Assembly (NCBI GenBank): GCA_964016885.1
Contig: OZ024742.1
Span: forward strand, 255,316,001-255,380,000
Reading direction: 5' to 3'
DNA: 64,000 nt
Source of the DNA: Eledone cirrhosa
Taxonomy: Eukaryota
Shown: positions 57,611 through 57,713 of the stretch, one piece after another
Position numbering within the stretch: the first letter of the stretch is position 1
How the letters are laid out: each line of letters begins with the position of its first letter
Notes under the pieces: model-generated
The model's database searches: none
What the model was told of the DNA's origin: nothing
What the model saw: the letters and a program-made list of their open reading frames with translations, nothing else
Made by a program: the position numbers and the translations under genes

Positions 57611-57713
57611 GAAGTACTCTTCATTTGTTGCTCCGCCTTCCCGGAGGTATTATTGAGCCTAGTTTACGTATGTTGGCATCTAAATACAACTGTGAGAAGA
57701 TGATTTGCCGAAA
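57611..57713 (+). CDS. RPL40: UBL-eL40 fusion, coding exon 3: [34 protein letters not shown](K)
   Basis: TTGCAG| acceptor and AA|GTGAGT donor. 103 nt; contains the di-Gly junction and the start of eL40. Confidence 0.97.

Follow-up and report, generated by a model that had tools for sequence, protein, structure and literature searches.

The ribosomal protein eL40 of animals is encoded by UBA52 as a fusion, in which a 76-residue ubiquitin-fold head ending in a di-glycine precedes the 52 residues of eL40. The reason for the fusion of ubiquitin with eL40 and with eS31 is considered open, the candidates being ubiquitin supply and a function as folding aid (PMC8122580). Work in yeast indicates that the ubiquitin head raises the yield of eL40 in cis, a role in which SUMO can partly substitute, and that an uncut head on eL40 impairs 60S maturation and elongation (PMC6721733, PMC8122580). 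Heads that have departed from ubiquitin are on record for some of these fusions: Dalhuisen et al. (2023) describe divergent UbL40 as previously known only from Giardia, add two Plasmodium cases (P. vivax and P. ovale), give no animal L40 case in their treatment of these proteins and wonder if similar events have occurred more widely (PMC10457151). In the Giardia and Plasmodium proteins L40 is conserved and the fold of the head kept, with the ubiquitin supply presumed to have moved to other genes; 15-30% of head sites differ from ubiquitin in Plasmodium, where the full set of seven lysines is mostly present (PMC10457151). The divergent Ub-S27a of Caenorhabditis and protists likewise has a ribosomal fusion head that escaped the conservation of ubiquitin, in this case on eS31 (PMC10457151). 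In FUBI-eS30 (FAU) a degenerate head with a di-glycine is carried by yet another ribosomal protein and is cut by USP36 and USP16 (PMC8354635, PMC10611586); it has lost most lysines and has a non-polar residue, Leu72, at the equivalent of ubiquitin position 74 (PMC10611586).

The window, i.e. the whole 64,000-nucleotide stretch of Eledone cirrhosa DNA analyzed here, contains an intact, spliced UBA52-type gene (Table 1), in which a ubiquitin-fold domain of 76 residues ends in GG and is in frame with an intact eL40 of 52 residues. The four coding exons together give a 387-nt frame (128 amino acids and stop), all introns are of the GT..AG type, and the coding exon sizes of 103, 87, 103 and 94 nt are equal to those of human UBA52. 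An open frame at 57610-57714 yields a 35-residue translation that spans the end of the head, LRLPGG, and the start of eL40. The replacement of Arg74 by proline with retention of Arg72 and the di-glycine, as proposed in the initial annotation, is borne out by the codons CGC, CCC, GGA and GGT of the window sequence (L73 is encoded by CTT).

A contig from sequencing run X4 lacks all three introns and matches the window without a difference over 57606-57713; this run, the kind of which is not on record, was used for the spliced form only, and contig depth cannot rank expression. None of the three splice joints was seen in run X1, which has the same organism label; both runs belong to one study that may be the source of the window. 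From another study with another organism label, run X5 provided a 151-nt contig of depth 4 with 0 differences over 57564-57712. The read support for codon 74 comes from X4 and X5; the single difference in X1 and those in run X6, where 6 of the exonic differences listed (at least 8) are silent and 2 residue-changing, say nothing about this codon. Proline is also present at position 74 in 7/7 cephalopod relatives retrieved (Octopus, Argonauta, Sepia and further records), and a 10-residue junction string around LRLPGG is common to all seven of these cephalopod-type proteins. The conservation in orthologues that the initial annotation had wished to see checked is thus found. Given P74 in all seven relatives and in both contigs, a sequencing error, for which that annotation had allowed, or a private mutation is ruled out, and RNA editing of codon 74 back to Arg is impossible, since CCC has no adenosine for A-to-I recoding.

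Table 1. Coordinates of the eL40 fusion gene and of other features in the window
Feature	Position	Strand	Remarks
Coding exon 1, 103 nt	54673..54775	+	Head residues 1-34 and first base of codon 35; joint 54774/55596 in X4 contig
Intron, 821 nt, GT..AG	54776..55596	+	Bridged by X4 contig
Coding exon 2, 87 nt	55597..55683	+	Head residues 35-64, including R42, V44, K48 and Q49
Intron, 1927 nt, GT..AG	55684..57610	+	Bridged by X4 contig
Coding exon 3, 103 nt	57611..57713	+	Head end (LRLPGG) and eL40 start; X4: 0 differences
Arg72 codon CGC, kept	57634..57636	+	Window sequence
Pro74 codon CCC, in place of ubiquitin Arg74	57640..57642	+	Window sequence; P in 7/7 relatives
Gly75-Gly76 codons	57643..57648	+	G76 at 57646-57648; putative cleavage after 57648
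Intron, 1181 nt, GT..AG	57714..58894	+	Bridged by X4 contig
Coding exon 4, 94 nt	58895..58988	+	Remaining eL40 and TAA stop; Pfam Ribosomal_L40e
Frame like the C-terminal end of LTR-retrotransposon integrase	260-745		Judged by eye
Three broken reverse-transcriptase-like frames, LINE-type	8176-9494, 37738-39771, 47556-49368		Family judged by eye
Minisatellite, ~44-nt period, some 60 copies	60777-63398		Downstream of the eL40 gene
Weak tRNA-like match, 30.5 bits	63759-63816	-	Probably tRNA-derived SINE

The divergence of the head as a whole is a larger finding than R74P alone. With the ubiquitin part of the clam protein P0023 as reference, the head has 37/76 identical residues (49%), where animal UBA52 heads have about 75/76; its tail reads LRLPGG instead of LRLRGG, and just two of the seven ubiquitin lysines, K11 and K48, remain (the five lost include K27, K29, K33 and K63), so that it falls outside canonical ubiquitin. 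The Plasmodium heads are thus less divergent than the cephalopod one, in which 51% of sites differ. The eL40 part is identical to clam eL40 at 49/52 positions and to that of five full-length cephalopod relatives, from octopus to cuttlefish, at 52/52, and Pfam PF01020 scores 108 bits on the orthologue P0010. The head retains F4, I36, R42, H68, L71, R72 and L73; around the L8/I44/V70 patch, L8, R42 and H68 are kept and the changes I44V and V70L are conservative. For P0010 a ubiquitin fold is predicted, with TM values of about 0.93-0.97 against ubiquitin chains; block pLDDT is 77-90 across residues 1-70 and drops to less than 50 at the junction. A search of the ESM Atlas gave generic ubiquitin clusters, at 0.88 or less.

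The closest named proteins among the matches listed are annotated as "ubiquitin-60S ribosomal protein L40" of four cephalopod taxa (Octopus bimaculoides, O. vulgaris/O. sinensis, Argonauta hians and Sepia pharaonis), accompanied by three further records; Nautilus and named squids are absent among these matches. The head from the window is identical to those of Octopus and Argonauta at 62-64/76 positions and to that of the cuttlefish at 51/76, a pattern suggestive of an octopod. Across seven cephalopod heads (P0060 was left out, its head being identical to that of P0011), 26 positions are invariant and the same as in ubiquitin, among them R42, K48, H68, I36 and F4, and 16 are invariant and derived, including K27M, K29S, K33R, I44V, V70L and R74P. 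Given that LRLPGG is common to octopods and cuttlefish, the change predates the split between them, about 270 million years ago. The tail stands out in this set, in that residues 66-76 are invariant at 11/11 positions as against 31/65 upstream; the naive probability of 3e-4 for this is too favourable, given the relatedness of the sequences and the core strand formed by residues 66-71. The tail with its GG is under constraint, in agreement with the initial annotation, which had taken the retained GG to imply selection for cleavage.

Several observations point to this locus as the eL40 (UBA52) gene in use in a coleoid cephalopod, probably an octopod. Databases already list its orthologue under the name ubiquitin-60S ribosomal protein L40 (XP_014769892.1, PDB 9EHO chain m), an annotation that treats the divergent protein as ordinary, and among the single-domain PDB matches of P0010, 9EHO chain m ranks first (E 1.7e-83). 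The 9EHO entry is an octopus ribosome described in a preprint in which neither L40 nor ubiquitin occurs in the text, nor L40 in the supplement (PMC13321053). The 128-residue record of chain m was dismissed as a sign of uncut protein because human and yeast entries also list 128 residues. A structure search with an eL40-only model (mean pLDDT 66) found no eL40 chain by fold. A published list of proteins at least 80% identical to ubiquitin has two rows for O. bimaculoides, polyubiquitin and Ub-S27, and the same two for Ixodes scapularis, so that the eS31 fusion stays canonical in octopus and Ixodes; it includes Ub-L40e for oyster, Biomphalaria and Elysia, and is evidently incomplete, since Lottia and Pomacea also have no Ub-L40e row (PMC8122580, Table S1). 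Together these data suggest, on good but indirect evidence, that the divergent gene may be the sole eL40 gene, with canonical ubiquitin encoded elsewhere. That it should be a spare paralogue next to a canonical Ub-eL40 gene is hardly credible: the eL40 in 9EHO is of this divergent sequence type, eL40 is unchanged from octopus to cuttlefish, and a canonical cephalopod Ub-eL40 is absent both from the named matches listed and from that table. If such a copy did exist, it might be P0018, a protein with a cephalopod-type head carrying L8S and several eL40 changes, followed by a YI repeat past the exon 3 boundary; P0018 may be a duplicate of the gene or an artefact of gene prediction.

A survey of eL40 fusions places the cephalopod head in a wider pattern. 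From 220 proteins, 210 had a recognizable junction, and 138 heads could be aligned over at least 65 positions. Among the matches listed, R74 is kept in 83/86 heads that are at least 90% identical to ubiquitin, in 4/15 of those at 70-90% and in 2/37 of those below 70%, of which 37/37 retain L73 and GG and 34/37 R72. These 37 heads are redundant (23 tick and 7 cephalopod), one of the two R74-keeping rows being a duck entry; both searches used an LPGG-bearing query and top matches only (in one, the best 120 of 1327), and proline is for this reason over-counted. R74 is lost in 7/8 divergent groups seen. Residue 74 is Pro in cephalopods, in multi-repeat fusions of voles, in one fungal gene model, and in P0285 and the partial P0248; it is Val, Leu or Met in ticks of seven genera, with 24-37 identities to ubiquitin, and Ser in the P0300 cluster, while P0288 keeps Arg74 and has lost R72. 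The tails of P0285, P0248, P0300, P0288 and P0053 read LSLPGG, LTLPGG, LRLSGG, LSLRGG and LDLPGG, respectively; P0248 is labelled Salmonella, yet is a fragment of a eukaryotic ribosomal protein and probably a contamination. In a profile search of 50%-identity representatives, polyubiquitin-like proteins were among the best 150, and in these Pro precedes GG in 2/333 L.L.GG motifs.

The eL40 heads of ticks (Ixodes, Amblyomma, Hyalomma, Dermacentor, Rhipicephalus, Haemaphysalis and Ornithodoros; rows P0214-P0217, P0219, P0221, P0223-P0225, P0228, P0229 and P0321-P0332) are still more degenerate, with a tail LRL(V/L/M)GG and loss of K48 in the aligned rows. In voles (Chionomys nivalis, Microtus oregoni and Alexandromys fortis; vole-type rows P0005-P0009, P0040, P0231 and P0314-P0320) several tandem ubiquitin variants precede eL40; these are identical to ubiquitin at 62-69/76 positions, carry G10D and I44L and mostly end in LRLPGG, and similar single-head forms occur in ENA records. 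Two eL40 chains in the PDB, 6zj3_L2 and 5xy3_m (126 and 132 residues), score far below canonical fusions and may have divergent heads. In a tree of 30 fusions, a common origin of the cephalopod and tick heads was neither shown nor rejected (support 53/89). We infer two origins, because canonical genes are present in bivalves, gastropods and a mite, and because a single fixed derived head residue, E64G, is common to ticks and cephalopods. Two points escaped the initial annotation: R74P belongs to a set of 16 fixed changes in a head that has drifted overall, and the trend recurs in ticks and voles.

It is conceivable, if unlikely, that relaxed drift accounts for all of this, the head having dropped out of sequence exchange with the polyubiquitin locus and P74 being tolerated, with ordinary deubiquitinases (DUBs) cutting well enough through R72, L73, GG and the kept R42/H68 surface. 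Published work indeed explains divergent heads by escape from concerted evolution (PMC10457151), and the retention of F4, I36, R42, H68, L71, R72 and L73 would be in keeping with it; the invariance of P74 need not be special, since the fixed derived residues number 16 in all. Drift alone sits less easily with the fixation of P74 while 34/65 upstream positions vary, and with the repeated loss of R74, nearly always to a non-polar residue, although the sample of divergent groups is biased.

We consider it reasonably likely that the head is instead a FUBI-like pro-domain, which is cut by one or more restricted proteases and kept out of the ubiquitin pool and of chains, and we infer each enzymatic step of this scheme. 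The head would help the production and folding of eL40 in cis and would be removed by a cut behind G76, since 60S function suffers while the head stays on; the same two properties, action in cis and harm to 60S when uncut, would explain why its fold and GG persist although it has ceased to be ubiquitin. The non-polar P74 would remove the Arg74 salt bridge and one backbone NH, and cleavage might then fall to a subset of ubiquitin proteases, with USP16/USP36-like or UCH-type enzymes as candidates, probably at a slower rate. If charged by E1 via R72, the free head would be expected to stall before E3 transfer, so that most chains could not form; the stalled head would not contaminate ubiquitin signalling and would be turned over, for which a KLHDC C-degron (PMC11568203) offers a lead. 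Ubiquitin itself would be supplied by polyubiquitin and Ub-eS31 genes. In such a scheme the head is probably a removable folding aid, not a source of ubiquitin, and probably lies outside the ubiquitin pool.

The published enzymology of residues 72-74 is in part consistent with this scheme. E1 is reported to select strictly for Arg72, with few contacts to Arg74, and variants at residue 74, among which proline is not named, form the E1 thioester and are blocked at the transfer from E2 to E3 (PMC3731359). A non-polar residue at 74 together with a hydrophobic Ile44 patch excludes most USPs from FUBI, leaving USP16 and USP36 (PMC10611586). The initial annotation had taken R74 for a key contact of both UBA1 and DUBs: the DUB part stands, as loss of R74 excludes most USPs in the case of FUBI with its Leu72 (PMC10611586), and the UBA1 part is not supported, given that Arg72 is decisive for E1 (PMC3731359). 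The single substitution is therefore less telling for E1, and more telling within the repeated pattern of eL40 fusions, than that annotation held. No data on R74P were found in a literature search, and two yeast scanning papers contain no R74 data in the text or supplements searched (PMC4862753, PMC6078352).

The comparison with FUBI has its limits. In architecture the window protein is an orthologue of UBA52; it is neither ubiquitin in sequence nor a member of FUBI, although by analogy it probably works like FUBI. Its partner is eL40 and not eS30, it has Pro and not Leu at 74 and keeps K48 and not K27; it also retains L13, with no I13H, and R42 and Q49, with no Q49P. The retention of R42 and Q49 means that the second filter of FUBI, the hydrophobic Ile44 patch, is absent, which counts against the favoured pro-domain reading. 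Furthermore, the effect of P74 may be to prevent cleavage altogether and not just to narrow it, because L73P ubiquitin and conjugates of Ub-LRLPXTGG resist DUBs.

Taken to its end, this objection suggests an uncleaved fusion, with P74 blocking all proteases and the head staying on the 60S subunit, as the eS31 head of Giardia does on its own partner, a natural precedent for an uncut form. K29 has a role in ubiquitin-fusion degradation, and the loss of K27, K29 and K33 could shield an uncut fusion from this process. DUB resistance conferred by a tail proline is on record at position 73 (PMC5419743), and in Ub-LRLPXTGG conjugates, which resist USP7 and UCHL3 with two extra residues as a confounding factor (PMC9773336). 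We nevertheless hold an uncleaved fusion to be very unlikely, as L73 and GG are kept in all 37 divergent heads among the matches listed, the uncut form of Giardia has a broken di-glycine and, in yeast, both 60S maturation and elongation suffer when Ub-eL40 stays uncut (PMC8122580). That the octopus ribosome preprint makes no mention of L40 in its text (PMC13321053) is a weak point in the same direction.

A further reading, which we regard as distinctly improbable, sees in the head a new lineage-specific modifier, released, charged by UBA1/UBA6 via R72 and attached as a mono-modification that is slow to be removed. E1 tolerates changes at 74 (PMC3731359), ubiquitin and NEDD8 with L73P still undergo conjugation but withstand removal, such ubiquitin being resistant to many DUBs (PMC5419743), and FUBI conjugates have been reported in the literature. 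The invariance of R72, R42, GG and K48 points the same way, the presence of R72 and GG being permissive only for conjugation. The block of E2-to-E3 transfer by non-native residues at 74 (PMC3731359) speaks against such a modifier. So does the octopod-cuttlefish identity of only 51/76, which is loose for a modifier that has to be read by partners. We know of no dedicated enzymes for it. The variant in which a proline-tolerant protease frees the head as a DUB-resistant mark, with parallel tags in ticks and voles, appears equally doubtful; standard di-Gly proteomics would miss this mark, since the remnant on the lysine after trypsin would be LPGG.

Returning to the FUBI-like pro-domain, no description of divergent eL40 heads in cephalopods or ticks was found in the literature, in which subscription journals were thinly covered, and the conserved divergence of the cephalopod head has apparently gone unremarked. 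Recognizing it corrects the annotation that counts this gene as a source of cephalopod ubiquitin. The natural proline at P3 raises the question of which protease is able to cut such a site. The repeated change of Arg74 to a non-polar residue, i.e. Pro in cephalopods and voles, Val, Leu or Met in ticks and Leu in FUBI, suggests a general rule for retiring copies of ubiquitin from the pool. Finally, animal eL40 heads that are no longer ubiquitin and have kept the fold and the cutting site separate the two roles proposed for the fusion, and favor that of a folding aid.
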